This document shows positions 138 through 18,663 of a stretch of 64,000 bases of DNA, piece after piece (the stretch's first letter is position 1; each line of letters begins with the position of its first letter). A program made the translations under genes and the position numbers. The notes under the pieces were generated by a model. It had not been told where the DNA came from, did not search any database, and worked only from the letters and a program-made list of their open reading frames with translations. This DNA comes from Euryarchaeota archaeon UBA257 (GTDB lineage Archaea > Thermoplasmatota > Poseidoniia > Poseidoniales > Thalassarchaeaceae): positions 14,586 to 78,585 of the forward strand of contig DAJO01000030.1 in the NCBI GenBank assembly GCA_002498985.1, in the 5' to 3' direction.

Positions 138-158
138 TTGTATCTAGGGGGTCAAAAA

Positions 159-2288
159 ATGTCTCAAATTAAAACGCAGCGCATGGGTAGATTACTTGCT
201 GCGGGGACTAAAGACAAAATTGACGAAGTAATTGATGCATTAGCAACTCTAAATGCATTACACTTCATTGAATACGATGGATCAGATGAAGGTTTCAATC
301 TAGGTACACCCAAAGATGAATCTGAGATGGTAGGAAAACGCCTCACAAAATTACGTTCTGCAGCATCAATCGTAGATTACAATGGCCCAAAATCTCCTGT
401 TACTGCCGAAAAAGTACGTTCAGAATTAGATGGTGCCCTTTCTGATGCTGTAGATGTTCTTTTGGAAAAGAGCACCCGCTTAGATACTGTAGAAAATAGC
501 CTTTCCTCGCTCCGAGAGGAAGAATCGATTATGGGACTGCTTTCCTCTATTGACTTAGATGTAGAGTTGCTTTCCGGCTATTCTACTCTCAATACATTTG
601 TAGGGACAATTTCCGGTGGATCTTCAGACATTGAGTCCCAAATTATTGATGCAGGAATTGAAGGACTATTCTTTCAAGGTTTAATTAATGGCAGCAAGGT
701 AGTCGCTGTTTTCGTTAAATCTGAACGTTCGAATGATATCCAATCTATTCTCAATCAATCAGGTTTTCAGGCGATTAATATTCCAGAGGGAATTACTGGC
801 AACCCTAAAAAGTTGATTGAAGAGATAAAATCTGAAATCAATAAACTGTCTTCCGAGCAATCTTCAATCGTCAAGGATATTGAATCTTGGAGTGATGAAT
901 TTGGTTCATCTTTAGCATGTGGCTTAGAGCTTTTAGAAAGGGAGCATGATATCCTTACTGCTCCTGTCAAAATCGCAGTTTCAGAACATGCTTTCTTTAT
1001 CGATGGCTGGATTGAACTTTCACGTTCCGAAGAAGTTCAACATGCATTAAATAATTACTGCCAGTATTCGGAAGTCACGCCGTTCAAGGTTGAGCCAGGA
1101 GGAGGCGGGCATGGTCATTCTGATCATCATCACCATCAAGAAATGCCTCCAATTGCATTTCAAAGTAGAACACTAAGTAAACCTATGGAATTACTAACTA
1201 ATGCCGTTGGAAGGCCTGCTTATGGCAGAATTGATCCCACTCTGTTCATGTTCGTAACTTATCCAATATTCTTTGGAATGATGCTCGGAGACATGGCATA
1301 CGGGATAGTAACCATTTCCCTTGGTGCCTTTGTATATAGCAAGGCACGCTCTAATGAAATGATGCATCTTGGTGGTAAGTTCTTGATTTACATAGGATTA
1401 GGTACACTCATCTTTGGTTATATTTATGCGGAGTTTGCTGGATGGGAAATTTTCCTTTACGAAAAGCTAACCTATGCCGATGGTAGTTACATGAAGGACT
1501 CAAGCGGACATTACATGTATAGTGAGAATCTATCTCCTGTGGCCTTCCTTGCTAACCTCTATCCATTTGATCTCGATCATGGCTATGGGCCTTTTGTTGA
1601 ATTAGGCTACGGTATTAACCTGGCATTCCCATTCCATAGAGTAGGGACTCATTTAGAGGACCTTATAGTATTGACAATCTACGTAGGATTCTTCCACATC
1701 ATCTTCGGTAAGTTAATCGGGTTCCGAGATGTATTATTTTACGGTACTGACCATGGTCATGTAGGCTTAGCAGCAGCATTTTTTGAACATGGCTCTTGGA
1801 TAGTGTTACTAATTGGCGGCTTCATGTTTACCTATGGTTTCCTTGGCCCTGATGAATTCGATTATTTGTTACAACCCGGTGCTGCAATTGCTATTTCTGC
1901 TGTTGTGATGTTAATTTGGACTCTTTACAATTATCATGGTATTCCAATTGCAGTCAGTTTAATCCTAGCACCTATTGAGGCAATTGGTATGATGCCGTCA
2001 GTAATTTCGTATGTCCGCCTCTTTGCAGTAGGTATTGTAGGCGTAAAAATTGCAGAAACTGGAAATAAACTATGGGAACCAATGTTGGAGGCTGAGCTAT
2101 ATTTAGTGCCTGTTTTCTTTATTGGATGGTTGTCCGTACAGATTTTCGCTTGGGTTTTAGGAGTATTTAGCCCCAACATACATGCAGCAAGGCTTCATTT
2201 CGTAGAATGGATGAGGCAATATTATGATTCTAGCGGAGAGGCTTTCCAGCCTTTCGGTTTCCGCTCGCACTTCGTGGAGGTCGAGTGA
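159..2288 (+). CDS. atpI: A-type (A1AO) ATP synthase subunit I (stator/a subunit)
   Basis: About 709 aa, with a soluble coiled N-terminal half and a polytopic C-terminal half ending in the conserved RLxxVxxxxxE-like stretch (SYVRLFAVGIVGVKIAETG). It is the first gene of an I-K-E-C-F-A-B-D series. I prefer ATG 159 (AGGGGGT SD-like sequence 7 nt upstream) over the TTG at 138 used in the ORF track. Confidence 0.9.
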   Translation: MSQIKTQRMGRLLAAGTKDKIDEVIDALATLNALHFIEYDGSDEGFNLGTPKDESEMVGKRLTKLRSAASIVDYNGPKSPVTAEKVRSELDGALSDAVDVLLEKSTRLDTVENSLSSLREEESIMGLLSSIDLDVELLSGYSTLNTFVGTISGGSSDIESQIIDAGIEGLFFQGLINGSKVVAVFVKSERSNDIQSILNQSGFQAINIPEGITGNPKKLIEEIKSEINKLSSEQSSIVKDIESWSDEFGSSLACGLELLEREHDILTAPVKIAVSEHAFFIDGWIELSRSEEVQHALNNYCQYSEVTPFKVEPGGGGHGHSDHHHHQEMPPIAFQSRTLSKPMELLTNAVGRPAYGRIDPTLFMFVTYPIFFGMMLGDMAYGIVTISLGAFVYSKARSNEMMHLGGKFLIYIGLGTLIFGYIYAEFAGWEIFLYEKLTYADGSYMKDSSGHYMYSENLSPVAFLANLYPFDLDHGYGPFVELGYGINLAFPFHRVGTHLEDLIVLTIYVGFFHIIFGKLIGFRDVLFYGTDHGHVGLAAAFFEHGSWIVLLIGGFMFTYGFLGPDEFDYLLQPGAAIAISAVVMLIWTLYNYHGIPIAVSLILAPIEAIGMMPSVISYVRLFAVGIVGVKIAETGNKLWEPMLEAELYLVPVFFIGWLSVQIFAWVLGVFSPNIHAARLHFVEWMRQYYDSSGEAFQPFGFRSHFVEVE

Positions 2289-2335
2289 TATCACATTCCA
2301 AGCAAAATGCTTAGAAAAAAATGGAGGAAAAAAAT

Positions 2336-2638
2336 ATGAATAACAGAAATAAAATGAGAGGAATGAGTATGTTGCTAACATTATCATCTATAGTGATGAT
2401 TGCTAGTAGCGTTCAGGCGGAAGACAATGCTTCAACAGAAGTAGCATACAAGAATCTAGGTGCAGGAATTGCTCTAGGTCTTGCTGGAATTGGAACTGGA
2501 TTAAGCCAGGGGCCAATCGGTGCAGCAGCTGTTGGTATGATTGCTGAAGATAGTAGTAAGTTCGTAAACGGACTGATTTTTACTGCTCTACCTGAGACTA
2601 TCGTTCTTTTCGGTTTCCTTTCAATATTCCTGCTTTAA
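2336..2638 (+). CDS. atpK: A-type ATP synthase subunit K (c-ring proteolipid), with a signal-peptide-like N-terminal extension
   Basis: Gly/Ala-rich two-helix hairpin (GAGIALGLAGIGTGLSQGPIGAAAVG ... LPETIVLFGFLSIFLL) with the carboxylate in a PET motif. GGAGG at 2323-2327 lies 8 nt before ATG 2336, so I prefer 2336 over 2321. Confidence 0.85.
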   Translation: MNNRNKMRGMSMLLTLSSIVMIASSVQAEDNASTEVAYKNLGAGIALGLAGIGTGLSQGPIGAAAVGMIAEDSSKFVNGLIFTALPETIVLFGFLSIFLL

Positions 2639-2688
2639 GCGGAATAATGGAAGTTCCCTATAACGAAATTAAAATTGAGGTGTAATAA

Positions 2689-3246
2689 ATGACATTGGAT
2701 GCATTAGCCAACGAAATCGCAGCCCAAGCGAAAGCTGAAGCTGAAGAGATTATCGCAGCCGCTAAGCAACAAGCTAAACATATTGAAGATGAAGCTAAAG
2801 TAGAAGCCAGTTCATTTTCTTTTGATATGAAAGCACGTGCTGAGCGAGAAAGCGCACAATTGTCAGTAGAAGTAGTTGCATCAGCTAAACAGGCTAACCA
2901 AAAGCATCTCTTGATCGCTAGACGTGAAGAGTTAGATGAGACTTGGGAGTCAATACGTTCAGCAGTGGCGTCACCCGACCTGGATGGTCGGTCCGATATT
3001 CTTGCTGGACTTTTAGCCGAAGCAAGTAAACCAGGCGATGGAATGATTCTCCGCCCCGTGTCTACTGACCGTAAGGTGTTAGAAAAAGGGAGTTTTACTC
3101 TCGGTGAGGATGTAGAAGGGCTTGGAGGATTTGTTCTCGAATCAAAAGATGGCTCTATAGTTCTTGATTACCGCTTTGACAGCCGCTTAGATGAGGCTTG
3201 GAAAGCAAATCTTGGTGCTGTAAATAAAACTTTATTTGGAAATTAA
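2689..3246 (+). CDS. atpE: A-type ATP synthase subunit E (peripheral stalk)
   Basis: 185 aa with an Ala/Glu/Lys-rich coiled N-terminus (EIAAQAKAEAEEIIAAAKQQAKHIEDEAK) followed by a globular tail. Operon position after atpK. GAGGTG SD upstream. Confidence 0.8.
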   Translation: MTLDALANEIAAQAKAEAEEIIAAAKQQAKHIEDEAKVEASSFSFDMKARAERESAQLSVEVVASAKQANQKHLLIARREELDETWESIRSAVASPDLDGRSDILAGLLAEASKPGDGMILRPVSTDRKVLEKGSFTLGEDVEGLGGFVLESKDGSIVLDYRFDSRLDEAWKANLGAVNKTLFGN

Positions 3247-3259
3247 AAAGGTGAATTAA

Positions 3260-4315
3260 ATGTCGGGTATAGTGAGTGGTCGTTCAAATGTCTACAATGC
3301 TTCAGCCCGCGCTAAAGCACGTAAAGCATCATTAATTGATCCTACTAGAATGAGGCAATTGCTGCAAACAGGTCCTGAATCAATTGGGGCCAGTATTGGA
3401 GAATTAGGATATCGTAATGAAATGGATATCTATTCTGCTAGAATGAGCGGTGCTGACGCTGTTGAAGCGGCTCTATTCCATAATCTCGATAATGACTTAT
3501 CCGAAGTTATGAAATTTTGTCAAGGTCCTCTTAAGTCAATAGTTTCAATTTATGTTGAACGTTTTGCTTACGAGAAAGCCAAAACCGTGTTAAGGGCAGT
3601 AAATGGGGGGTGCTCTGATGAGTTAATCGAAGCTCAGATATTACCCTCGGAAAACCCGATGAACGCAATCTGGCTAGATATTGTTCGAACAACTGAAACA
3701 GTTTCCGAAGCAGCAAACGCAATGGTAGGCACCCCTTGGGGTAAAGAATTAGCTAAGTTAGAAGGGACTGAACCTAGCCTTGAAGAGATGGAAGATGCAC
3801 TAGATCGTCAGTACTACAGTCATGCACTCAAAGTTTCAAAGGGTAAAGATTCTAATATTCACTTAATGAAATTTATTAGAACCGAAATCGATCATCGTAA
3901 TATTATCAATCAATTCCGTGAACTTCGTCAGAATATTTCTCCAGACAAACGTTTACAGATGATAATTTCCGGTGGGAGAATTTCACAATCAGTAATGTCT
4001 CAAGTATCACAAGCAACGTCTAGTGAAGCAATTGTTGATGCCTTAAGGCGAAGCAATGCATTTGATGATGTAGGTTTTGATGAGGCAATCGAGAAGTCAG
4101 AAGCAATAGGATCTCTAGATCCCATCGCGACTCTGCTAACGCACAAGAGACATGCTATTTTACGCCGTTTCGCTTATCTAAACCCTGTTTCTGCCTTCCC
4201 TGTAATTTACTACATCGAGCGTAAAGTGCTTGAAATACAAAATCTTCGTCTTCTAGTGCGTGGTAAGACGATTGGCCTCACAGCTGAGGTATTGGAAGCG
4301 CACATGGATTTTTGA
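3260..4315 (+). CDS. atpC: A-type ATP synthase subunit C (homolog of eukaryotic V-ATPase d subunit)
   Basis: 351 aa, helical. The size and the position between E and F are typical for atpC. AGGTGA SD upstream. Confidence 0.85.
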   Translation: MSGIVSGRSNVYNASARAKARKASLIDPTRMRQLLQTGPESIGASIGELGYRNEMDIYSARMSGADAVEAALFHNLDNDLSEVMKFCQGPLKSIVSIYVERFAYEKAKTVLRAVNGGCSDELIEAQILPSENPMNAIWLDIVRTTETVSEAANAMVGTPWGKELAKLEGTEPSLEEMEDALDRQYYSHALKVSKGKDSNIHLMKFIRTEIDHRNIINQFRELRQNISPDKRLQMIISGGRISQSVMSQVSQATSSEAIVDALRRSNAFDDVGFDEAIEKSEAIGSLDPIATLLTHKRHAILRRFAYLNPVSAFPVIYYIERKVLEIQNLRLLVRGKTIGLTAEVLEAHMDF

Positions 4316-4324
4316 GGTGAAAAT

Positions 4325-4624
4325 ATGGAAATTGCTGTTGTAGGTTCATTAGACTTCACTCTTGGTTTCCAACTTGCAGGTGTTTTGAGATTATATAATC
4401 CAAAAGATCTGGATGAAATGACATCAATCATGAAGTCATTACTTAATGAAAAAGAAATAGGAGTTATTGTAATTGATAATTCCGATCTATTACTTCTCCC
4501 AGAAAGGTTACGAGTTCAACTATCTGAGAGTATCACGCCCACAGTATTGGGTATCGGGACTGAAGAGGATAATACCCTCCGTGAGTCTATCAAATCGGCA
4601 CTAGGAGTCGACCTATGGAAATAA
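4325..4624 (+). CDS. atpF: A-type ATP synthase subunit F
   Basis: 99 aa. The N-terminus MEIAVVGSLDFTLGFQLAGV is typical of subunit F. GAGGTGA SD upstream. Confidence 0.85.
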   Translation: MEIAVVGSLDFTLGFQLAGVLRLYNPKDLDEMTSIMKSLLNEKEIGVIVIDNSDLLLLPERLRVQLSESITPTVLGIGTEEDNTLRESIKSALGVDLWK

Positions 4625-4656
4625 TCCTAGATTAAAATAAAAGGAAGTGAAATGAA

Positions 4657-6399
<1,743 letters not shown>

Positions 6400-6410
6400 A
6401 GGTGATATAA

Positions 6411-7796
6411 ATGACTGGAAAAGAATATAGAACAATCACAGATGTAAAGGGACCTCTTGTGTTCCTAAATAAAACGGAACCTGTAGCCTTTGGAGAAATT
6501 GTAGAATTAAGACTTACAGATGGAACATTAAAGAACGGACAAGTTCTTGATACATCCGACGATCAAGTTATTGTCCAAGTGTTCGAAGGAACAGCATCCA
6601 TAGATAAGCAAACAGGAATTAAGTTTCTTGGAGATGTATTCAAGTTACCTGTGAGTACTGATATGATTGGTAGAATTCTAGACGGTGCTGGACGGCCTAG
6701 AGACGGAGGACCTGCGATTGTTGCAGATGAAATGGCAGACATCATTGGTGCTGCAATTAATCCATACTCAAGACAAAGCCCATCTTCTTTTATTCAGACA
6801 GGAATTTCTGCAATTGATGCATGTACTTCTTTAGTTAGAGGGCAAAAATTACCAATTTTCAGTGCATCAGGTTTACCTCATAATGATATTGCCCTACAAA
6901 TAGCTAGACAAGCAAAGTTAGTTGGTAGTGATGACGATTTCGTAGTAGTTTTCTGTGCAATGGGAATCACTGCAGAAGAATATAATTTCTTCGTGCATGA
7001 CCTAGAAAGAACTGGTGCTCTTGAGAATGCTTGTCTTTTCGTAAATCTTGCAGACGATCCAGCGGTTGAAAGATTAATCACTCCTAGATTAGCTTTGACT
7101 GCTGCTGAGTATTTGGCTTTTGAACACGATTATCACGTACTAGTTATTTACACAGACATGACTAACTATTGTGAATCACTACGTCAAATTGGAGCAGCAC
7201 GTGAAGAAGTACCAGGTCGTCGAGGTTATCCAGGTTACATGTACACTGACTTGGCTATGTTGTATGAACGCGCAGGGTTAGTTAAGGGTAAGAAAGGTTC
7301 AATCACTCAGTTCCCAATTCTAACAATGCCTGGTGACGATATTACGCACCCAATCCCTGATCTCTCAGGATATATTACTGAAGGGCAAATTGTAATTTCT
7401 CGTGAACTTCATCAGAAAGGAATATATCCGCCGATCAATGTTCTACCTTCTTTATCTCGACTAATGAATGCTGGAATAGGTGACGGTAAGACTCGTGAAG
7501 ATCATAAGTCAGTTTCAGATCAACTATATGCAGCATATGCTCAAGGTAGAGAACTGAGAGGTTTAGTAGCAATTGTAGGTGAAGATGCTCTAAATGAGAG
7601 GGATTTACAGTTACTTAAGTTTGCAGATATTTTCGAAAATCAGTTCTTGAGGCAAAGTCGTGATGAAGATAGATCTATTAGCGAAGGAACTCTAGATTAT
7701 GCTTGGGAACTTCTTTCCAATATCGATACTAAGTATTTAGTACGTCTTGACCAGAAATGGATTGATAAATACCACCCTACAGATAAGAAAGAATGA
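6411..7796 (+). CDS. atpB: A-type ATP synthase subunit B (non-catalytic)
   Basis: 461 aa. Conserved [39 protein letters not shown] and [13 protein letters not shown] blocks. GAGGTGAT SD upstream. Confidence 0.97.
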
Positions 7797-7823
7797 TTAT
7801 TAGTAATTAAGGAGATGAGATAG

Positions 7824-8441
7824 ATGGCATTAGACATCAAACCAACACGTTCTGAATTAATCAATCTAAAACGTAGAATTAAACAGACTTCCAGTGGATA
7901 TAATCTTCTTAAAATGAAGAGAGATGGTTTATTCTTTGAGTTCCGAACATTACTGGCTGAAATGATAGCAGCTAGAGAGGAACTTGTAGGTACGTATAGA
8001 GATGCTTTGAAATCTATCGCGTTGGCATCTTCAATTGAAGGAGGTCTAGCAGTTAAAAGTGCAGCCATAGCGGCGACATCTGGTCCAGAGGTGACAGTAA
8101 CTAGAAGGAATATCATGGGTGTAGTTGTGCCCAAAGTGGATGGAACTAACCTTACAACGACAGTAGAAACTAGACCTACTGGAATTATTGGAGGATCCCC
8201 TTATATCGATGAATCTGCAGATTCTTACTCTATCTTAATCGCTAAAATAGTCAAGGCTGCCGAAATGGAAGCAACATTGAAGAAATTATTGGAAGAAATA
8301 GAAGCAACTAAGAGGAGAGTAAATGCCCTCGAATTCGTTGTAATTCCTGAGATGAAAGAGGCCCAATCATTTATTCAACTTAGACTTGAAGAAATGGAAA
8401 GAGAAGAAACTTTCCGACTTAAGAGATTCAAGAATAAATGA
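7824..8441 (+). CDS. atpD: A-type ATP synthase subunit D (central stalk)
   Basis: 205 aa. N-terminus KPTRSELINLKRRIKQTSSGYNLLKMKRDGL and C-terminal coiled coil with TKRRVNALEFVVIPE are characteristic. Last gene of the operon. Confidence 0.9.
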   Translation: MALDIKPTRSELINLKRRIKQTSSGYNLLKMKRDGLFFEFRTLLAEMIAAREELVGTYRDALKSIALASSIEGGLAVKSAAIAATSGPEVTVTRRNIMGVVVPKVDGTNLTTTVETRPTGIIGGSPYIDESADSYSILIAKIVKAAEMEATLKKLLEEIEATKRRVNALEFVVIPEMKEAQSFIQLRLEEMEREETFRLKRFKNK

Positions 8442-8459
8442 TTTTATTGTTTTATTTCC
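8442..8459 (+). terminator. Weak oligo-T tract after atpD (possible archaeal terminator)
   Basis: TTTTATTGTTTTATTTCC follows the atpD stop codon directly. It contains only T4/T4/T3 runs, so termination would be leaky at best. Confidence 0.25.
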
Positions 8460-8529
8460 TTCAGACTCTCACACACGGTTTGATAGGGGATGCTCTATGT
8501 TCAGTGTATATTGAGATGGAGGTGTGACT

Positions 8530-10953
8530 ATGTCAAATGTTGAACCAATAGTTATTGATGTTGAAACTTGGGGGCAGAGAGAACTTATTGAAGAAATTTG
8601 TAGCCGTTATTTCGTAATAGGTAATCAGTCTGGATTGAGTGATTTTTCTTGGGAAATAAATTCCCGTGATGGTGGAGATATTAGCACAAGCCTCAATGAA
8701 CTAAATATTCATTTGAAGCAACTAAGTTTGATAGGATTATTAGATGAAGGAAATCCTCCAACTCTCTCAATAATTCGTTATCCGGTAGATCCGGTTAATG
8801 TTCCTTTTTGGCAACAATCATTGATTTGGTTTACAATGTTCATTTTTACAACACTAGCAGGTTGCTACTGGATTTCGCAATTTGAAAATAGTATATCAAT
8901 ATTTAATTCGGAACTATTTTTAGAATCATTGACATTTTTTAGTATGCCAATATTCTTGACTATGCTCTCTGCTCACTTTATTAGGAAGTATATCGCTTCC
9001 CTTTTCAGAGTTGATGTAGGGAATCTTGTTCCCATAGCATTCCCTTTGATTTCTCCTTTTTGGCCATTTGGAATCGTAGGCGTTTTTGGTCAGAAAAGAG
9101 TTGATACTATCACTTATCCAAATAGAAGGTCTTTGGGCATAATTGAATTATCTTCAATAGTTGTGCTAGTTCTTTTCGGCTCAATACTTTCCATAATCGG
9201 GCTAAGTATTACTTCGGCAAGTCCTCCTGAGTCAGTATCTGATCCTCTAATATTACAAGCCAACTTCATTGTTGAGATGTTATCTAATCTTTTCCTAGGT
9301 GACGATGTTTCAATCAGACTTCAATGGGTTCACCCTATTGCTTTAGCAGGTTTTGGTCTATCTATGATTGGCTGGATTTTGATTTTACCAATTCCTGGTT
9401 TCCCTGGAGATAGAATTTTACATTCAATTGTTGGTTCTAAGAATTTGGACAAAAGCACAAATACAACTTCTATTTTCTTAATGACATTAACTTTAATGTG
9501 TTTAGTATTTCTTTCAACCACCTTTTGGCCTTGGCTTATTCTAGCCTCGTTAGCATCTTGGAGGAGGTTTAGCAGTGAACATATTCCGGTGGCATTAATA
9601 GTTGATGAATCTTTAGAATTAGATAGAAACTCTAAGAATTTATTGATGACTATTTCAGTTGTAATAATTTTACTGGGTTTTCCGGGGCTGAGTCCGGTAG
9701 AAGATATTGAGGATTGGGATAGTGGTTTGGATATATCAGAATGGGATACAGAATTTTCAAGTAACTCTTGGGATAATGTAGAAAAATCTCTTGAATTAAA
9801 GACATCTGGGCTTTTGTCAGTTTCTGGCCAGCTTAAGGTTCTAATTGATGGTGAATCCGATAGATGGATTATAGATTCTGATTGTTTCGATGATGAAATG
9901 AAATGTAATTTTGAAAACATTAATCAAAATAATGTAGGCGAATTTAAATTCTCTATCAAAGATAACTATCCAGAAAGAAAAACTCCTGTACAGTTAAGAT
10001 TCATCATAGAATCTGAGGGAGATTTATTTGAGCATATTCTTTCTATTTACTATAGTGATGTTACATCTCCAAGTCCTATTTGGGAAAGAGTAGAAGATTC
10101 AAGTAAGGATAAAATTTGTAATGTTGTAGAGGTAGTTAACAATCAAACTGGTATATTATCGATTAAAACGAATCCATTCTGGTCTTTGGAAAATTCTGGA
10201 AATTTATCTGAAATAGGTTCTCATGAAATTTGCCTAATTGCAGAAAGAGGGGGTTGGGAATCTTTAGCAATGGGCGAATCTGGAATTTATGGCTATAGGA
10301 TGGCTCCTGAATTAGAGTTTCGACAGAGCAATGGCAATACTACCAATTGGTATTTACCTGTGAATAACTCATTTACTAGTATTTTTTTAAATCCTAACTT
10401 TGGAATCAGTCTTGATATTATGTTTGATGGAATTATCTACTCTGAGAATAATATTTCACCAGTATGTCCGTTCAATGATGATTATCCCAAAATTGATATA
10501 AATTCTGAAGAGAACTTGACTTTGATTCATGGTTCCCCATTGTCTTATGAGGGAAACAATAGTGGCAAAAACCTGTTAGTGTCTGATGAAGGATGGTTAG
10601 TGAACTGTGCTGATGATATGGCTAAAGGTTTTATGTTAAAGCAGGGGCTAGGAATTTATATAGATAATTCTCCATTAAATGACTCTAGTTTACCGTTTTC
10701 TAATTTTGCTATTCATTCAAAAGAATCTGAAAACCTATCTCTAACAGTAGATATTTCTACTAACTTACAAAGTGATAATTCATTGAATGTTTCATTCCCT
10801 AATCAGATTCCTACTAACGGTAGTGTAATAGTTAATATTTCTCTTAATGATGAAATTAATGAAATTTGGAGAGTATTCTGGATTTCACAAGATCTTAATG
10901 GTTTAGTATTAAATTTTGTTTCTAAGTGTCCTATTGGAGGATGTTCAAATTGA
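8530..10953 (+). CDS. Polytopic membrane protein with a site-2-protease (peptidase M50)-like core that lacks HExxH, fused to a large sequon-rich C-terminal ectodomain
   Basis: The M50B-like layout is recognisable. HFIRKYIA (nt 8974-8988 for HFIRK) stands where HExxHxxxA should be, followed by G..LVPIAFPL....PFGIVGVFG......YPNRRSLGIIELSS. The second block is HPIALAGFGLSMIGWILILPIPGFPGDRILHSI (nt 9331-9423), against the usual NLLPxxxLDGGH. The C-terminal roughly 400 aa are Asn/Ser-rich with many N-x-S/T sequons. GGAGGTG lies 5 nt before ATG 8530. Confidence 0.6.
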   Translation: MSNVEPIVIDVETWGQRELIEEICSRYFVIGNQSGLSDFSWEINSRDGGDISTSLNELNIHLKQLSLIGLLDEGNPPTLSIIRYPVDPVNVPFWQQSLIWFTMFIFTTLAGCYWISQFENSISIFNSELFLESLTFFSMPIFLTMLSAHFIRKYIASLFRVDVGNLVPIAFPLISPFWPFGIVGVFGQKRVDTITYPNRRSLGIIELSSIVVLVLFGSILSIIGLSITSASPPESVSDPLILQANFIVEMLSNLFLGDDVSIRLQWVHPIALAGFGLSMIGWILILPIPGFPGDRILHSIVGSKNLDKSTNTTSIFLMTLTLMCLVFLSTTFWPWLILASLASWRRFSSEHIPVALIVDESLELDRNSKNLLMTISVVIILLGFPGLSPVEDIEDWDSGLDISEWDTEFSSNSWDNVEKSLELKTSGLLSVSGQLKVLIDGESDRWIIDSDCFDDEMKCNFENINQNNVGEFKFSIKDNYPERKTPVQLRFIIESEGDLFEHILSIYYSDVTSPSPIWERVEDSSKDKICNVVEVVNNQTGILSIKTNPFWSLENSGNLSEIGSHEICLIAERGGWESLAMGESGIYGYRMAPELEFRQSNGNTTNWYLPVNNSFTSIFLNPNFGISLDIMFDGIIYSENNISPVCPFNDDYPKIDINSEENLTLIHGSPLSYEGNNSGKNLLVSDEGWLVNCADDMAKGFMLKQGLGIYIDNSPLNDSSLPFSNFAIHSKESENLSLTVDISTNLQSDNSLNVSFPNQIPTNGSVIVNISLNDEINEIWRVFWISQDLNGLVLNFVSKCPIGGCSN

Positions 10954-11900
10954 GAATAGCCATTATCGGCGTAGGTTCAATTGGTGGTATCATTCTTGGT
11001 GCAATGGCAGATACAGATGTTGATATCGTTTGTGTATCTAGAGGAGAAACTGCCGCTAACCTTTCTGAATTAGGATTAATTTTGCATACTCCCGAAGGTA
11101 GTATCGAGGTAGTCCCCAGTGAAAGATACTTGCTTGTCGACAGTAATTCGGGTCCAATTTCTGAACAAATTCGCAATACCTGTGATATTGCAATTGTCTG
11201 CGGAAAAACCGTAGATACTCACTCATTATCTAAACTTGCATCAGAATTAGTAAGTGAAAATGGTTGTGTTTTAACAATCCAGAATGGTCTGGGTAATGCA
11301 GAACTATTAGCTCATAAAGTAGGTAGGAGTAGAGTAATTGTTGGTTCAATTACTCATGCGGCTTGGAGAAATAATGGTGGCGAAGTGCATTGGGTTGGTA
11401 GAGGAGAAATTATTTTTGGACCACTAGATGAAAGAGGTGATAAGTATACTGATTCTTTATTACAAGTGCTCAATGATGCGGAATTAAATGCTTCAAAATC
11501 AGATAATATTCAACAAATTTTGTGGAAAAAACTTCTAATTAATGTTGCGATAAATCCTGTTTGTTCGATTGCCGGTGTGCGAAATGGTGCACTTTTAGAG
11601 GTCAAATCTCTTTGGCAACAGGCGATGCAGGCAATGCGAGAAGCCGCTATTGTCGCTCGTGCAAGTGGGGTAGATTTAGGAGATATTGAATTGGAAAGTT
11701 ATCTCAGAGAAGTGGTCTCTATTTCTCCAAAGAATAGGTGTTCTATGCTTCAAGATATTATGGCGGGTAGGGAAACAGAAATTGATTCTTTATGCGGGGC
11801 TGTAGTGATGCGTGGAGAAGCAGAAGGAATCCCTACTCCTTGTAACGCTATTTTACACGGTTTAGTCAAAGGAATCGAAAAATCTTCAAGTTTAGATTAA
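10950..11900 (+). CDS. panE: 2-dehydropantoate 2-reductase (ketopantoate reductase, ApbA/PanE family)
   Basis: N-terminal Rossmann motif (M)RIAIIGVGSIGG, then ...LWKKLLINVAINPVCSI and SMLQDIMAGRETEIDSLCG (PanE C-terminal domain signature). I prefer TTG 10950 (GGAGG 9 nt upstream), which overlaps the upstream stop codon. The ORF track starts at GTG 10926. Confidence 0.8.
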   Translation: MRIAIIGVGSIGGIILGAMADTDVDIVCVSRGETAANLSELGLILHTPEGSIEVVPSERYLLVDSNSGPISEQIRNTCDIAIVCGKTVDTHSLSKLASELVSENGCVLTIQNGLGNAELLAHKVGRSRVIVGSITHAAWRNNGGEVHWVGRGEIIFGPLDERGDKYTDSLLQVLNDAELNASKSDNIQQILWKKLLINVAINPVCSIAGVRNGALLEVKSLWQQAMQAMREAAIVARASGVDLGDIELESYLREVVSISPKNRCSMLQDIMAGRETEIDSLCGAVVMRGEAEGIPTPCNAILHGLVKGIEKSSSLD

Positions 11901-13534
11901 TTTTCTAAATCTTGATTATAGTGAAGTCCAACATTGTTCTTTCTTTCTATCGATGCGTCGACAACGAGTTTTGCAACTTCAATCAGATTTCTCAATTCTA
12001 CTAAGTCTTGTGTGGGTTTACATGACTCCCAGATTCTTTTTACTTCGCCTTCTAGATGTATGACTCTTCTCTTGGCTCTTCTCAGCCTTTTACTATTTTT
12101 TAAAATCCCTACGTCCATCGTCATTGTTGTCCTTAAGGCATGTAAATCTGCTCGAAGAGGCGCATGTTCAACTAATACCTCCAAGTTTTCAGCACGCCAA
12201 AATGGTAAGTTAGTAGGTAATTCTTGTAATTCTTCATTTGATGATTTTTCAATTAAATCCCTGGCTGCTCTTTCAGAATAAACAACAGCCTCAAGTAGAC
12301 TATTTGATGCAAGGCGATTTGCCCCATGTAATCCTGTTCTAGCAACTTCTCCAATAGCATATAATCCCGGCATTATACTTTCTCCTATTTTCACTTTACC
12401 TGAGTGATCGACATCAATACCTCCAACCATATAGTGTGCAGCAGGAATGATTGGTATTGGATCAATTCCTAATTTTATACCATATGATAATAATTTACTA
12501 TCTATATTCGGGAACTCTTGGACCAATTCGCTTCTTTTGAGATGTTCAGTTATCAGGAGAGCATTCCTATCTCCTGTTTTTTTAAGTTCTGAATCGATTG
12601 CTCTAGCAACGATATCTCTTGTCCCCAGAGATCCTTTATCACAATATTTCCACATAAATGAAAATTCTTCTGGCGATTCATTTTTTGATAATTTCCATTT
12701 TTGATAATCATTTTCCATCATTAGAACTGCTCCTTTCCCTCTCATGGCTTCAGTAATCAAGAACGGCTTCGAATCATCATTTGCCAAGGACGTGGGATGA
12801 AATTGTATGAATTCAATATCTTTGATATCTGCACCTGCGCGAAATGCCATTGCTACTCCGTCTCCAGTTGCTATTGAGGGATTAGTTGTAGATGAATGAA
12901 GATAACCTACACCTCCTGTGGCTAAGATTATTGCTTTTGCAGGTAATGTATGTACTGTTCCAGATGGCGATAAACACCATATCCCTACGACTCCTTTTTT
13001 TGGGTCCCCGTATTCTCTTTGTATCAAATCTATAGCCATCCAATTTTCATATATCCTAAAATTTTCATCGATTTCGTTAGATGCAGATTTAGAAAGTGCC
13101 CTCTCAATTTCTGCTCCTGTAGCATCTTTTGAGTGTAAAATTCTTCGATTAGAATGCCCACCTTCTCTAACTTTATCATATTCTCCATCTCGATTCTTAT
13201 CAAAACGTACTCCGTGATTTTCTAGATCTCTAATTCTTTCAGCAGCTTCTAAGACTACTGATCTTACCACTTTCTCGTCGCACAATCCTGCGCCAGATGA
13301 TAGCGTATCTTGCACATGCGCTTCTATCGCCTTTTGATCATTTGAGTCTAGTACTCCTGCTATACCTCCTTGTGCCCAATTTGTATTCGATGTGGAAATA
13401 CTTTTTTTTGTTATCAAAGCCACATTCAAGCCTTTTTCGGCACAACGATTTGCTAAAAATAAACCTGCAATTCCAGAACCTATTACTGCGATGTCGACAT
13501 TTGGCATCAATTCATCATCGCCACCGCCTTGCAT
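11897..13534 (-). CDS. nadB: L-aspartate oxidase
   Basis: FAD-binding motif DIAVIGSGIAG, TNWAQGGIAG, HPT..., and RTGLHGANRLASNSLLE typical of NadB and fumarate-reductase flavoproteins. The true start may be the internal MPNVDIAVIG (13507). Confidence 0.9.
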   Translation of the reverse strand: MQGGGDDELMPNVDIAVIGSGIAGLFLANRCAEKGLNVALITKKSISTSNTNWAQGGIAGVLDSNDQKAIEAHVQDTLSSGAGLCDEKVVRSVVLEAAERIRDLENHGVRFDKNRDGEYDKVREGGHSNRRILHSKDATGAEIERALSKSASNEIDENFRIYENWMAIDLIQREYGDPKKGVVGIWCLSPSGTVHTLPAKAIILATGGVGYLHSSTTNPSIATGDGVAMAFRAGADIKDIEFIQFHPTSLANDDSKPFLITEAMRGKGAVLMMENDYQKWKLSKNESPEEFSFMWKYCDKGSLGTRDIVARAIDSELKKTGDRNALLITEHLKRSELVQEFPNIDSKLLSYGIKLGIDPIPIIPAAHYMVGGIDVDHSGKVKIGESIMPGLYAIGEVARTGLHGANRLASNSLLEAVVYSERAARDLIEKSSNEELQELPTNLPFWRAENLEVLVEHAPLRADLHALRTTMTMDVGILKNSKRLRRAKRRVIHLEGEVKRIWESCKPTQDLVELRNLIEVAKLVVDASIERKNNVGLHYNQDLEN

Positions 13535-13713
13535 GTTACTTCCATGGCATAGTAATGAATGAATCTTCGCTTATTGAAAATGATTTTCGGCTTTGAAAAA
13601 GAACTCATTTTTTCGTGTCATAGCGCCTGAGTCCTCCTCAATGTTCATAGAGTAAAATGCAGCAGCCAATGAATGATGTCGGCGATAAATTGCTGATATT
13701 ATATGGTGATGGG

Positions 13714-16700
13714 ATGCATCTTGTAAGAATTGAACTGGAAAATTTCAAATCTTTCGGTGGTGAAATAGTAATTCCTTTCGAAGAGGGATTCACTGCAATC
13801 ACTGGCCCAAATGGTTCAGGTAAGTCTAATTGTGGCGATGCCATACAATTTGTTCTCGGACCTAAATCTACTAAGTCTCTAAGGGCTTCAAATGTTTCTG
13901 AGTTAATTTACAATGGTGGTGGAAGAGGTAAAGCTGCCAGAAATATGTCTGCTACACTAGTTTTTAGAAATGAACCAGAGATTGATGGTAGGCGTAGATT
14001 GAGAATTGAAACAGAAGAAGTTTCATTCACTCGTTCAGTACGTTTAAACCGTAAAAATGATACTATTTCTTCATATTATGTCAACGGCAATCCCTCCACT
14101 GCTACTGAAATGAGAAGAATATTAGCAGAAGCCGGATTACATGGTGATGGATATAATATCGTATTACAAGGAGATGTCACTACTTTAGCGACAATGACTC
14201 CTCACAAAAGAAGAGGAGTTCTGGAAGAGGTCGCAGGAGTAACTGCATATGATGATGAGATTCGTCGTGCTAACAATCAAAGAAAAGTTGTAGAAAATAA
14301 TATTGAGACCATTGATCTTTTCGAAGACGAACAGAAAAAACGCCTAAAAGGACTTGAAAAAGAAAGGCAGCAAGCATTGAAGTTTAAAGATCTAAAAGAA
14401 GAATTAGATTCAAATAAAATCATTTTAAAACAATCAAGACATAGAAATCGGTTAGATGATGTCCGACTTCTCGGCGATGAACGTTCGAATTATAGTAAAC
14501 AAGTTGATGACTTGACAAACCAAATTAGAGATGGGAATACTGAGTTAGGAAAATATGACGAAGAACTTGTCCAAATAGGTGACGATTTAGATGAAATTAT
14601 GAGTGGCGATGCTAAGGAATTATTTGAAACAATTCGCAAGCATGAAATCGATGTTGAAACCAACTCCGACAGGATAGGGGACCAATCCAAAATCATTGAA
14701 TCTACTAATCATGAGATTGAAATAATCCGCGAAGATCATCAACGAGTCAAAGATTCCTATGATAGTGCGCACCAAGAACTTGAGAATGCACAAATTAATT
14801 TATCTAATTCACAAGAAGATTTAGCTAGGGCTGCACTCGATGAAAATCAAGCTAGGGAAGCCATACAATCAGGAGATCGTCTCGGGCGAGATTTGAACCG
14901 TGCCCTGGGTCAAGCAACTGAACTAGTGACTCAAACCCATCAAGATTATTCTACTGCTAAATTAGAATCAGACAGGGCAGAACAAAATGCCCAAATTTCA
15001 TCTGAGAAATTAGCAGATTTAGAAGAAGAATACGAACAAGCGACCCTAACTAGGGATGATTTAGAGTTATTGGGAGAAGATATCCAAAATGGTGGAGAGG
15101 CAGTCGATCGAACACACTTGGCTAATGAGTTACAAAGATTAACCAAACAAGAAGTTGGCTTAAGGGAAGACAGAGATAGGGCTGAGATTAGAGCCAGAGA
15201 TGCTGAAGTAGACTTGGCTAAAGCTAGAGCGCGACAAGAAGCAAAAGCTAACAGACCAGGCTCAGCAATCACAATAGCAGCTCTTTCGAAATTAAGACAG
15301 AGTGGAGAGATCAAAGGAATTCTTGGTACATTAGGTGAGTTATGCTCACCTAAAGATACGATTCATGAAGAGGCATTGGCTATAGCATTAGGAAATGGTC
15401 TTAGAAGTATAGTTGTAACCAATGATGAAGTAGCTGCAGATTGCATTAAATGGTTAAGAATGAATGGTGGTGGACGTGCCACTTTCCTCCCATTAAACAA
15501 ATTAAGTGTTTCAAGGCCTCAAGGTCGTACACTGATAGTCTCCAGGAACCCCGGAGTCCTAGGTTTCGCCCATGACTTACTTGATTATGATTCAGAGATA
15601 GATATCGCTGTAAGATATGCCTCTAGAAATACCTTGATTGTTCAATCGATGGATATAGCTAGGAAAAATATGGGTGGCGCAAGAATGGTCACCTTGAAGG
15701 GAGATATTATAGAAGGTTCAGGAGCAATGACAGGAGGGTCTCCAGTTGGCTCTTCGAGACCCAGTTTCGGCGGAGGTAATCCCGGACAACTAGGTTCTGA
15801 AAAATTAGAAAGGTCTTTGGAAGAAGCAAATCTGATTTATTCGACGGTCGAAGCAGCATTAAGAGAACTGAGATCTAATCAACAAGATCTAAGGGACCAA
15901 ATTCATGGATTAGATGATAGTGACCAATCTGTGAAATTAAGGGAATGGAAATCAGATCTTTCCAGAGCTCAGAAAGATGTGGACGAAATTGGAAACAAAG
16001 TATTAGCCGCACGAAAAGAACTTTCAGATGCTGAGGTTTTATTCAATTCAGCTAAATCTTATGCCGATAAGGCTAATGAGACTCACCTACAAGCTCTAGA
16101 ATCTCGAGTTAATGCAGCAGAAGCATTACAGAACCATACTCCAGACCACCTTTCCCAGATACTCCGTAATGCAGAAAAAACTAGGACTGAAGCAGAGAGA
16201 ACTAAATTGCAATCAGAATCATCTATAATTAGTACTAATGAGAGGTTGAAGATTCTTTCAGATAGAATTTCTGATTTAGAAAGGCAAATAAGTTCTAAAC
16301 AGAAATCAATCAATGAAGCAGAAGAAGAAGTTATCAAACTAGAAGAATCTATTCAGAGTTCTAGAGAATTACTGATTGACCTAAAGGGTCAAGCCTCACA
16401 ATTCAATGAAGAACAACAAATTCTGACCCAAAGAAGAGAAACTATTCTCGAGGAAAGAGCCAGTTTGAGAGCCTCTCTTGAAACTCGTTCACAAAATCGC
16501 CAAACTTTTAATTCTCGGATTGAGGATTTGAATATTCAGATTAATCAGAAAAGGGCTGCGGTAAATGAAATTGTTGCCGAATTAGCAGATGAGAATATTG
16601 AAATTCCATCAATAGATATCCAATTACCCACTGTAGCCGAGGCGGAAAAAGTAGTGCAGGGACTTGAAAGGCGCCTCGGTTATCTTGGGGATGTGAATAT

Positions 16701-17646
16701 GTTAGCAATTGAACAATATGATGTTGCAGTTGAACGTATAGCAGGCCTTGTAGAGGATGGTAAAATTCTTAGACAGCGTCGAAATGATCTTGTTGGAATC
16801 GCAGAAAGACTTGAATCCGAGAGGAAGAAGAGGTTGTTATTAGTATTCGACCATGTGAATAAAAATTTCAGCAGAGTGTATCAGAGTTTGCAACCTGGAG
16901 GAATTGGTAGTTTAAGGCTAGAAAATAGAAAAAATCCCTTTGAAGGCGGTTTAGAGATGGATTGCGTACCTCCAGGTAAGAATAGTAAAACTAGAAGAAA
17001 CCTTCTTTCGGGTGGAGAGAAATCTATGGCCGCTCTTGCTTTGATATTCGCCATTCAAGATTATGAACCAAGTCCATTCTATTATTTCGATGAAGTAGAC
17101 CAAAACTTAGACCCGTTTAATTCAGAGTTAATTGCTTCACTTTGTTTAATGCGTTCACAAAGAGCTCAGTTCATTATGGTGACACTAAGGAAAGTCAGTT
17201 TAAATCTGGCAAATCACCATATTGGCATTACTCATGCGGGAGATGGTTGTAGCCGTAGAATCACAGATTTCGATCGTGCAGCAGCATTACAAATGAGTGA
17301 AGATATAGAAAAAGAAGAAGCGGCTAGGAAACAATCCGATGAAGAGCGCTCAGAATTAGTCCTGCCAGATCCAAATCAAATGCCTAGAGTACCTGAGCCG
17401 CTTGGCACCCCCAAATCACTTGGAGGGCTTGCCGGAAGAGCGGGTGTAGAGTTAGAAGATGAATCAGAAAACTCTGAATCTCCATCACCCGATATTGAAA
17501 ATAAGAATCTAGAAGCATTAAGAGAAAGGACAGAAGACTGGAGCGAAGATATTGCTGAAGACAATATCGTTCAAAAAGCCATCACTGATGAGAGTTTAGG
17601 TGAAGATACAGAAGAGGTTGAATCATCAGAAGTAGAAGTTGAGTGA
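13714..17646 (+). CDS. smc: Chromosome segregation ATPase SMC, with an acidic C-terminal extension of about 117 aa
   Basis: N-terminal head MHLVRIELENFKSFG...ITGPNGSGKSN, long coiled coils, a hinge (GILGTLGEL...ATFLPLN), and C-terminal signature and Walker B LSGGEKSMAALALIFAIQDYEPSPFYYFDEVDQNLD. I prefer ATG 13714 (GGTGAT upstream) over 13657. Confidence 0.92.
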   Translation: MHLVRIELENFKSFGGEIVIPFEEGFTAITGPNGSGKSNCGDAIQFVLGPKSTKSLRASNVSELIYNGGGRGKAARNMSATLVFRNEPEIDGRRRLRIETEEVSFTRSVRLNRKNDTISSYYVNGNPSTATEMRRILAEAGLHGDGYNIVLQGDVTTLATMTPHKRRGVLEEVAGVTAYDDEIRRANNQRKVVENNIETIDLFEDEQKKRLKGLEKERQQALKFKDLKEELDSNKIILKQSRHRNRLDDVRLLGDERSNYSKQVDDLTNQIRDGNTELGKYDEELVQIGDDLDEIMSGDAKELFETIRKHEIDVETNSDRIGDQSKIIESTNHEIEIIREDHQRVKDSYDSAHQELENAQINLSNSQEDLARAALDENQAREAIQSGDRLGRDLNRALGQATELVTQTHQDYSTAKLESDRAEQNAQISSEKLADLEEEYEQATLTRDDLELLGEDIQNGGEAVDRTHLANELQRLTKQEVGLREDRDRAEIRARDAEVDLAKARARQEAKANRPGSAITIAALSKLRQSGEIKGILGTLGELCSPKDTIHEEALAIALGNGLRSIVVTNDEVAADCIKWLRMNGGGRATFLPLNKLSVSRPQGRTLIVSRNPGVLGFAHDLLDYDSEIDIAVRYASRNTLIVQSMDIARKNMGGARMVTLKGDIIEGSGAMTGGSPVGSSRPSFGGGNPGQLGSEKLERSLEEANLIYSTVEAALRELRSNQQDLRDQIHGLDDSDQSVKLREWKSDLSRAQKDVDEIGNKVLAARKELSDAEVLFNSAKSYADKANETHLQALESRVNAAEALQNHTPDHLSQILRNAEKTRTEAERTKLQSESSIISTNERLKILSDRISDLERQISSKQKSINEAEEEVIKLEESIQSSRELLIDLKGQASQFNEEQQILTQRRETILEERASLRASLETRSQNRQTFNSRIEDLNIQINQKRAAVNEIVAELADENIEIPSIDIQLPTVAEAEKVVQGLERRLGYLGDVNMLAIEQYDVAVERIAGLVEDGKILRQRRNDLVGIAERLESERKKRLLLVFDHVNKNFSRVYQSLQPGGIGSLRLENRKNPFEGGLEMDCVPPGKNSKTRRNLLSGGEKSMAALALIFAIQDYEPSPFYYFDEVDQNLDPFNSELIASLCLMRSQRAQFIMVTLRKVSLNLANHHIGITHAGDGCSRRITDFDRAAALQMSEDIEKEEAARKQSDEERSELVLPDPNQMPRVPEPLGTPKSLGGLAGRAGVELEDESENSESPSPDIENKNLEALRERTEDWSEDIAEDNIVQKAITDESLGEDTEEVESSEVEVE

Positions 17647-17652
17647 GGTGTT

Positions 17653-18663
17653 TTGTTGTCTGTTTTCGATGGTTCTTCAATGAGAGATGACATAGTATCT
17701 CGATTACTTGGAGGTGATGCCGATCTGGATACAAACAGGTACCTAGACAGATTAGTCGAATTATCGAAAGTAGAAGAAGCTGAACATCAGTTTTTGATAG
17801 ACCCTTTCGATCGTTCAGTAGCATTAGTTTTCCAACTATTCCATAATAGTGATTTAGACCCATGGGATGTAGATTTATCTGTATTCCTAGAATTATTTTC
17901 TAATAGAATTAATGACTCAGAAAATATCGATTTACCTACTTGTGGACGTTTAGTTCGTATGGCTTGGTCAATACTCAGAGGCCAGGCAAGTACATTGATT
18001 GAGAGGCAAGAGAGATCCCTCTTTGAAGAAGAAATTGAAGATACTTGGGATTTCGAGGATACATGGGAAAGTGATTTTTCAGATGAGGATTATAATTTCT
18101 CAGTAGGAGTACTTACAGGCGCTGCCGATGAAGTGCTACCCAGTATGTTCGAAGGGAGAATTCACCGTGAAGAAGGGAGGCCAGTTACGTTAGGAGAACT
18201 TCTAATGGGTCTCCAAGCAGCAGGAAGACTTTCTGAAGAGCAAAGAATGAGAGAACAAATTGCGAAAGAACGTCGTGAAGCTAATGAGAAAGCAAGGGCT
18301 AGGTTTGGAGGTAGCTTGCATGTTGAAAATCTTGAGGGTGATCTTGAAAGAACTTGGAATGCATTACGTAGCCGTACGATTTCTAATAATGAATCAACTG
18401 ATCTTAGTGAGATAGTTGATATCCTCAAAGAAAATTCTTTGAAGTCAGGGATTGGTCTAGATGAAGCCGAGTCAGAAGCCCAAGTCACAGCTTTAATTTC
18501 ATCTTTGTTTCTTACACATAGAGGTTATGCTGAGGTTTCACAAGATAGTGAGGGGAATATATCTCTGAAGAATCTTCATTTAGATGATGATGATTTTTCA
18601 ACTTTAACAAATAGAATAAACCCTAAATCCAAACTTCCTGGGGGAATTATTTTCAATGAATGA
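17653..18663 (+). CDS. scpA: Segregation and condensation protein A (kleisin)
   Basis: Follows smc directly. Has the LDPWDVDLS motif typical of the ScpA N-terminus and an acidic insertion. TTG start with GAGGTG upstream. Its stop overlaps the scpB start. Confidence 0.8.
   Translation: MLSVFDGSSMRDDIVSRLLGGDADLDTNRYLDRLVELSKVEEAEHQFLIDPFDRSVALVFQLFHNSDLDPWDVDLSVFLELFSNRINDSENIDLPTCGRLVRMAWSILRGQASTLIERQERSLFEEEIEDTWDFEDTWESDFSDEDYNFSVGVLTGAADEVLPSMFEGRIHREEGRPVTLGELLMGLQAAGRLSEEQRMREQIAKERREANEKARARFGGSLHVENLEGDLERTWNALRSRTISNNESTDLSEIVDILKENSLKSGIGLDEAESEAQVTALISSLFLTHRGYAEVSQDSEGNISLKNLHLDDDDFSTLTNRINPKSKLPGGIIFNE

Follow-up and report, generated by a model that had tools for sequence, protein, structure and literature searches.

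The stretch of DNA analysed here (the window; 64,000 nucleotides from Euryarchaeota archaeon UBA257, order Poseidoniales) carries, at 8530-10953 of the forward strand, a gene, here called X, for an 807-amino acid (aa) protein (P0001) that is very probably a site-2 protease (S2P; peptidase family M50) which has lost its catalytic residues while keeping the family's non-catalytic motifs. Its ATG, at 8530, is preceded at a distance of 5 nt by the Shine-Dalgarno-like (SD) sequence GGAGGTG (8518-8524, forward strand), and orthologues in the genus have GGAGGTG or GGAGGGG. Upstream, and given as context only, is the complete operon for the A-type (A1AO) ATP synthase, atpI-K-E-C-F-A-B-D (138-8441, forward strand; Pfam V_ATPase_I, ATP-synt_C, vATP-synt_E, vATP-synt_AC39, ATP-synt_F, ATP-synt_ab twice and ATP-synt_D). 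Downstream is panE/apbA, for ketopantoate reductase (10941-11900, forward strand; Pfam ApbA and ApbA_C), and after it, on the opposite strand, a gene for a nadB-like flavoprotein. The stop codon of X (10951-10953) overlaps panE whether the start of the latter is ATG 10941 or GTG 10926. This overlap, the 88 nt between the end of atpD at 8441 and X, and the GGAGGTG had all been pointed out in a first-pass annotation of the window, and all are present.

By profile comparison X is homologous to the S2P/M50 family. The single protein does not reveal this: a Pfam scan of X matched no family, M50 included, even at E <= 1, and an NCBIfam scan and a phmmer search against the Protein Data Bank (PDB) gave noise only. 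A profile hidden Markov model (HMM) built from 15 orthologues and searched against 1.84 billion representative proteins returned 108 proteins. Seven of the weakest matches (E 3.2e-8 to 8.3e-4, with alignments of up to about 400 residues) are genuine PF02163 proteins, scoring 76-88 bits on that model. HEL/MGH and GQLDGGH are found in all seven; counted by pattern, HExxH is in 7/7 and LDGG in 6/7, the seventh (P0218) reading IGQLDGG. Most have an N-terminal soluble domain, and five have a C-terminal tail rich in N-x-S/T sequons. When an alignment of 30 diverse X-family representatives (A3) was compared by hhalign with an alignment of all seven active proteins (A2), the match had a probability of 99.84 % (E 3.3e-30) over 407 columns, from residue 18 to residue 452 of X, a span that runs from the N-terminal domain through the core into the beginning of the ectodomain. 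The active subfamily that acts as the bridge matches MjS2P (3b4r) at E 8.9e-7, and it is the HMM matches, the hhalign result and this last match together that establish the homology.

The blocks that had been read in the first-pass annotation as an M50 template are, by the same alignment, genuine homologues. LPFFIP..GTFGAFI of the active proteins corresponds to VPIAFPLISPFWPFGIVGVFG in X, PNRKAL to PNRRSL, and HPxAFAGW..NLLPxGQLDGGH to HPIALAGF..ILPIPGFPGDRILH. The sole PDB match of the X-family profile itself, to the motif of RseP, is not significant (7w6y, E 0.75); in it LLPIPMLDGGH of RseP is aligned with X-family LLPIPtFPGgR (LLPIPxLDGGH of 7w6y/7w6z with LLPIPxFPGGR) in the register of the hhalign mapping. 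RseP has periplasmic PDZ domains inserted in its core, whereas X has Ig-like domains at its C-terminus, and X differs from both MjS2P and RseP in being without zinc ligands.

The register across the former active site is anchored at Pro140, which is invariant and corresponds to Pro132 of the active proteins, and at Ala156, which is conserved. Because there is no indel between the two, the HExxH columns fall on A148-H149-F150-I151-R152 (8971-8985, forward strand); the Asp column of LDG falls, in the hhalign mapping, on Pro292. This proline is within L-P-I-P-G-F-P-G-D-R-I-L-H (aa 286-298; 9385-9423, forward strand), formerly the NxxPxxxLDGG motif, where LLPAGQLDGGHI is aligned with ILPIPGFPGDRI. 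In the 30 representatives, which are at most 50 % identical to one another, the column of the first His (A148 in P0001) has Ala in 22, Ser in three, Val in two, and Cys, Thr and Gly once each. The Glu column (H149) has Ser in 24, Asn in two, His in one, and Asp, Gly and Tyr once each; the column of the second His (R152) has Gln in 14, Arg in 13, His in two and Glu in one; and the Asp column (P292) has Pro in 27, Ala in two and Ser in one. His149 and Asp294 are kept only in close relatives of the window's protein, and the Asp294 column, two residues past Pro292, has Gly in 15 and Asp in 12 of the 30.

The first-pass annotation had HExxH replaced by HFIRK (aa 149-153, 8974-8988) and LDGGH by PGDRILH (aa 292-298, 9403-9423). 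The loss of HExxH is real. The register given for it was one residue off, His149 standing at the Glu column and not at that of the first His, which leaves the conclusion unchanged: with H149 as first and K153 as second His there is likewise no ligand set (Ser in 24 of the representatives at the one, Lys in ten and Arg in ten at the other). No HExxH at the catalytic helix and no LDG was found in 46 full-length or long representatives or in 20 genome orthologues from across the order, and the only two HExxH strings (at residue 59 of P0145 and residue 71 of the fragment P0164) lie off that helix. Nor was any form intermediate between X and the active type found among the representatives, the genome orthologues and the seven active matches. 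Since both His, the Glu and the Asp are replaced order-wide by Ala/Ser, Gln/Arg, Ser and Pro respectively, X, as judged from these columns, could not work as a zinc metalloprotease. The proposal of a pseudoprotease that keeps its scaffold is to this extent borne out, HExxH and the LDG Asp being gone in every orthologue examined.

Single-copy orthologues of X are in all 41 relatives and in all 31 Poseidoniales genomes of a second sample. Pairwise dN/dS (omega) within the genus spans 0.06-0.16 over the parts of the gene. The ectodomain has 0.10-0.14, the N-terminal domain 0.08-0.16 and the core, the most constrained part, 0.06-0.11. That X might be a decaying pseudogene was considered and rejected, the reading frames being intact throughout and omega about 0.1; on these values X is a functional protein under strong purifying selection. 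One orthologue (L049; G060:C23:36955-39390) has a single in-frame TGA in its six-frame match, for which recoding, an error in the sequence or a pseudogene limited to that genome could account. With S2P homology, lost zinc-binding and catalytic residues and purifying selection found together, X is by sequence comparison an S2P pseudoprotease, an identification in which confidence is high.

What X has replaced can be read from the sister families. In the two of these that were searched (f3 and f27), each of 30/30 genomes has one active enzyme of the bridge subfamily (E 1e-117 to 1e-156). When the active profile was run against the 31 Poseidoniales genomes, X was the sole match (E 2.7e-25 in the window's genome). 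In the reverse search, the X profile matched Poseidoniales at 1e-140 to 1e-268, and its best match in the sister families was the active gene, at 1e-11 to 1e-21. X and the active subfamily are thus each present in one copy per genome and are reciprocal best matches, and X fills, as far as profile searches tell, the slot of the active enzyme: in Poseidoniales the active copy is replaced. Two other, canonical, M50 genes are retained there besides X; in the window's genome they encode a 514-aa PDZ-type HEYGH enzyme and a 278-aa HELAH enzyme. In a maximum-likelihood tree the X clade (SH-aLRT 99), on a long stem of 1.22, is sister to the active clade (99) and not nested within it.

The active subfamily (exemplified by P0201, P0209, P0210 and P0224, and by the single-copy enzyme of the sister families, L068-L079) has the same domain order as X, with an alpha/beta domain at the N-terminus, then a compact core, then an Ig-like tail at the C-terminus. 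Its core motifs run HELGHY ... LPFFIP..GTFGAFI ... PNRKAL ... HPxAFAGW ... NLLPxGQLDGGH ... HPPPL, and the non-catalytic blocks among them are common to X. Where the subfamily has HExxH and LDGG, X has Ala/Ser-Ser-x-x-Gln/Arg and Pro, and the ectodomain of X, at about 420 aa, is longer than the subfamily's tails. The settings of the genes also differ, X being between atpD and panE and the active gene overlapping one for an amidohydrolase. The latter was seen at the two loci annotated in the sister families, one of f3 and one of f27: in L080:6181-8963 and, for the other family, L082:8140-11225, the active M50 gene overlaps a downstream Amidohydro_1 gene by 4 nt. The pairing may be a clue to the pathway in which the enzyme originally worked.

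For a structural view of X, an AlphaFold2 (AF2) model from a 15-sequence alignment was poor (pLDDT 51) and was replaced by one from the 30-sequence diverse alignment (pLDDT 85.3, pTM 0.74). The N-terminal soluble alpha/beta domain (aa 1-88; 8530-8793, forward strand), which from residue 18 aligns by hhalign with that of the active subfamily, is modelled as helix 16-25, strands 28-33 and 40-45, helix 51-63 and strands 67-72 and 78-83; its pLDDT by block is 80-92 from residue 11 and about 49 for residues 1-10. We infer a cytoplasmic location for it. The polytopic membrane core, of probable S2P/M50 fold (aa 93-385; 8806-9684, forward strand) is defined by the hhalign match and by the hmmsearch matches to PF02163 proteins. 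It begins in the model with helices 93-116 and 127-158, the latter bearing the former HExxH, and further helices extend to residue 382.

The beta-hairpin region (9025-9123, forward strand), with W178-P179-F180-G181 and R190, aligns with the active LPFFIP...GTFGAFI...R block and is modelled with strands 166-170, 182-187 and 195-198; W178 and P179 are in 30/30 representatives, F180 in 29, G181 in 28 and R190 in 27. From what is generally known of S2P structures, this region is presumably the membrane-re-entrant, substrate-binding hairpin. The W-x-H-P-x-x-x-A-G block (aa 266-274; 9325-9351, forward strand), aligned with HPxAFAGW of active M50s, has W266 in 29/30, H268 in 24, P269 in 28, A273 in 27 and G274 in 28; the active subfamily is invariant at its H251, P252, A256 and G257. 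Order-wide, the invariant or near-invariant core positions are W100, P140, P168, W178-P179-F180-G181, R190, R199, G217, G224, W266, P269, A273-G274, W282, L286-P287, P289, P292-G293, R295, Q312 and W335.

The ectodomain (aa 386-807; 9685-10950, forward strand) had been described in the first-pass annotation as belonging to no recognisable family, which the model contradicts. About four tandem Ig-like beta-sandwiches are predicted, roughly at 405-510, 515-612, 616-712 and 723-800, and Foldseek against the PDB gave tandem Ig-like/PapD-ASH-like matches: HYDIN (7sqc), CEP192 SPD-2, Caf1M/EcpB, ClfB/FnBPA, Cnm and the S-layer protein SbsB. The description of this part as sequon-rich with a terminal CPIGGC (aa 800-805) holds, with a modest enrichment: 12 of the 14 sequons of X are within aa 386-807, against 6.9 +/- 2.3 when that segment is shuffled (P about 0.02). 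In the 30 diverse representatives the ectodomain has 6-16 sequons and the core 0-4 (0-8 with the genus set included). The number of Cys in the ectodomain, eight in X, is always even across the family (8, 6 or 4), Cys459, Cys646 and Cys693 being invariant and Cys452, Cys530 and Cys568 near-invariant. Because of the excess of sequons over the core and the even, conserved Cys, the ectodomain is probably an extracellular stalk, N-glycosylated and disulfide-bonded. It is also the least conserved part of the protein, with a mean identity of 18 % against 31 % for the core. A novel fusion of an ectodomain to an S2P was considered as its origin and rejected: the active relatives share the N-terminal domain and an Ig-like tail, and the alignment to them reaches residue 452. 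In two of these relatives there is a sub-threshold match to NCBIfam 'choice-of-anchor T', a surface-protein domain family (P0201, residues 378-464, E 3e-6; P0209, residues 429-516, E 5e-5).

The best explanation overall, and one held with good though not full confidence, is that X is a catalytically dead archaeal descendant of the S2Ps which probably serves as a client-binding scaffold. For the mechanism taken by itself the chances are about even. Its basis is that the retained hairpin and the helix-breaking LP.P..PG.R motifs form what we take, from general knowledge of S2P structure, to be the substrate groove, and since they are kept, a client segment may still be bound there and left uncut. 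X would then dock a transmembrane or juxtamembrane segment of at least one client in the old groove and work, like iRhoms, Derlins and EGY3, as a holdase, scaffold or regulator. Selection or sensing outside the cell would fall to the Ig-like ectodomain, the N-terminal domain would face the cytoplasm, and the Arg or Gln at the column of the second His may fill the former metal site.

EGY3 is the closest parallel. It is a chloroplast S2P pseudoprotease of plants, highly conserved in its lineage, and is thought to bind and stabilise its client CSD2 and not to cut it; it has been called the sole pseudoenzyme of the S2P family, and plant-specific (PMC9355673). X and EGY3 are alike in being S2P-family pseudoenzymes conserved in their own lineages. 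They differ in that EGY3 is reported only from plants while X is archaeal, in the Ig-like ectodomain and the N-terminal domain of X, and in that X stands in for the active member of its subfamily while other M50 paralogues stay, which is not claimed for EGY3. A separate origin is inferred because X groups, in the tree, with the archaeal active clade. The active subfamily nearest X is one that we take to resemble the EGY / cyanobacterial type, from its GQLDGG motif.

The likeness to iRhoms and Derlins is functional only, these being eukaryotic, of unrelated fold and derived from serine proteases. They are rhomboid pseudoproteases that have lost catalysis, kept recognition of client transmembrane domains, and gained or enlarged extramembrane domains integral to their function (PMC6451368, PMC3149277). 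That they proved to be major regulators in eukaryotes is what gives intramembrane pseudoproteases their interest. A bolder version of the client-binding proposal, drawn from this analogy and on balance unlikely, is that Poseidoniales turned the one EGY-like S2P they had into the prokaryotic equivalent of an iRhom, which captures the transmembrane segment of its client, leaves it uncut, and uses the enlarged glycosylated Ig-like ectodomain as an extracellular gate or sensor. A possible client would be one of the membrane subunits of the neighbouring A1AO ATPase, whose c subunit has an unusual N-terminal extension. If this were true, the order would have replaced regulated intramembrane proteolysis by non-proteolytic control of the client.

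The arrangement had been put forward in the first-pass annotation as one not previously described, which is right in part. No prokaryotic S2P pseudoprotease was found in the literature searched, with the limit that curated listings of non-peptidase homologues, where one may stand, were outside that search; a review of archaeal membrane proteases names only presumed active S2Ps (PMC9263693). A pseudoprotease of this family is, as said, already described in plant EGY3. On the comparisons made, X probably represents an independent, order-wide inactivation of an S2P in archaea, of a kind known from EGY3. With the dead X as the sole member of its subfamily in one order and the active enzyme in the sister lineages, there is a natural before-and-after pair for what the S2P scaffold does without its chemistry. 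The Poseidoniales, or Marine Group II, rank with the most abundant archaea of the plankton, and hardly any of the conserved membrane proteins exposed at their surface has an annotation; a 'hypothetical protein' universal in the group now gains a name, a fold and a topology.

Several points weigh against this interpretation. The homology of X to M50 depends on one archaeal subfamily as a bridge, because the Pfam M50 model is blind to X and a comparison with PDZ-type M50s is insignificant. In the six-frame search of the window's genome, PF02163 matched the two other, genuine M50 genes and did not match X. PDZ-type and short M50s of the same phylum, tried as the comparator, gave in hhalign only 29 columns at LPIP..GG (P = 0.059) and were rejected as too distant. 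In the tree, where stems are long and X is not placed beside the class's own active enzymes, the topology fits an accelerated orthologue and an older paralogue alike. The full-length Foldseek query gave only Ig-like structures among the 50 matches listed, the Ig-like domains swamping the core as regards 3b4r and RseP. Finally, conserved polar residues remain (H268, D192, R190, R199, R295, Q312 and D359/E360), with which a different chemistry is formally conceivable.

Among other explanations, the one suggested by position is that X is a dedicated accessory of the A1AO ATP synthase, for its assembly, quality control or regulation, co-transcribed with atpD and binding subunit c/K or I. In its favour, among 36 Poseidoniales loci examined, from three families of the order, the 35 that reach atpD all have X directly after it on the same strand, followed by panE and the nadB-like gene, so that the atpD-adjacent position expected of X in relatives is indeed kept order-wide. 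The start of X is led by an SD, and the 45-aa N-terminal extension of the c subunit could be a client segment. (The c/K subunit, at 2321-2638 of the window, has 105 aa, and Pfam ATP-synt_C covers 46-105.) The adjacency is, however, part of a block, atpIKECFABD–X–panE–nadB-like–SMC–ScpA (138-18663 in the window; loci L052-L066), that is collinear over more than 19 kb across the three families while the identities of its proteins drop to 26-50 %. Gene order is unusually stable in Poseidoniales, and synteny alone is weak functional evidence, since the block is one of functionally unrelated genes; adjacency to atp was for this reason rejected as evidence of function, SMC and ScpA being equally collinear. 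Further, the gap before X is the longest in the operon and contains a T-rich tract together with a TATA-like element that is conserved; the active relatives of the sister families are near neither atp nor panE, and no X-like gene comes after atpD in those families; and no homology of X to an ATPase subunit or assembly factor was found in the Pfam and NCBIfam scans. Of the tight link to the ATP synthase proposed in the first-pass annotation, the adjacency therefore stands, and the functional coupling finds no support. The accessory explanation is improbable, as is any role of X related to the ATP synthase, and a tempting assignment is corrected.

Less probable still is that X remains a protease or hydrolase, with a non-canonical active site made from its remaining conserved polar residues. 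The very strong conservation of the core (omega 0.06-0.11) would fit this, as would the retention of H268 (24/30), D192 (Asp or Glu in 27/30), R295 and D359 (Asp in 25, Asn in five), some of which are also in active relatives. Under either register, however, X lacks the general base and all three zinc ligands, and the invariant residues cannot make Ser-His, Asp-Asp or Glu intramembrane chemistry. The single conserved His of the core is conserved to the same degree in active M50s, in which, as S2P structures are generally understood, it does not bind the metal. Equally improbable is that the core is a mere anchor, the relevant part being the glycosylated Ig-like ectodomain as a structural protein of the surface or envelope or as an adhesin. 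In its favour, Foldseek matched adhesins (ClfB, FnBPA, Cnm) and SbsB, sequons and Cys pairs are plentiful in the ectodomain, and the latter has grown to about four domains, against the shorter tails of the active relatives. Against it, the ectodomain is the least conserved part (18 % against 31 % mean identity), and a mere anchor would not hold S2P motifs invariant in a core that is, with the N-terminal domain, the most constrained.

The gap between atpD and X, at 88 nt, compares with 9-50 nt for the other gaps of the operon. Directly after the atpD stop is the T-rich tract TTTTATTGTTTTATTT (8442-8458, forward strand), a possible archaeal oligo-T terminator; T-rich tracts are also found in the genus orthologues. 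It is followed by the 30-mer CACACACGGTTTGATAGGGGATGCTCTATG (8470-8499, forward strand), near-invariant in the genus even though identity among the X proteins there is no more than 58-88 %. Looser versions of it, GATTGAT/GATTCATGGGG, are found across the order. Similar ..ATAGG(G/T).. elements are about 30-45 nt upstream of other genes of the window, and the exact intergenic 13-mer is not repeated in the window above chance. The block is most likely a TATA-like promoter or regulatory site belonging to X, after which a short SD-containing leader would follow. Its conservation exceeds what a plain TATA box needs, so a binding site for a regulator is possible. X thus probably has its own promoter, and is probably coupled translationally to panE through the overlapping codons, a tighter link than that to atp. 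At one locus (L058; G061:C15) the gap between atpD and X is about 900 nt in place of about 90 and contains, besides three copies of the approximately 30-nt repeat GGCGTTGCGTCTGATTCTATTGCGGCCGCA, further duplications and a stretch of N, and its expansion may be due to a mobile or repeat insertion or to an assembly problem.

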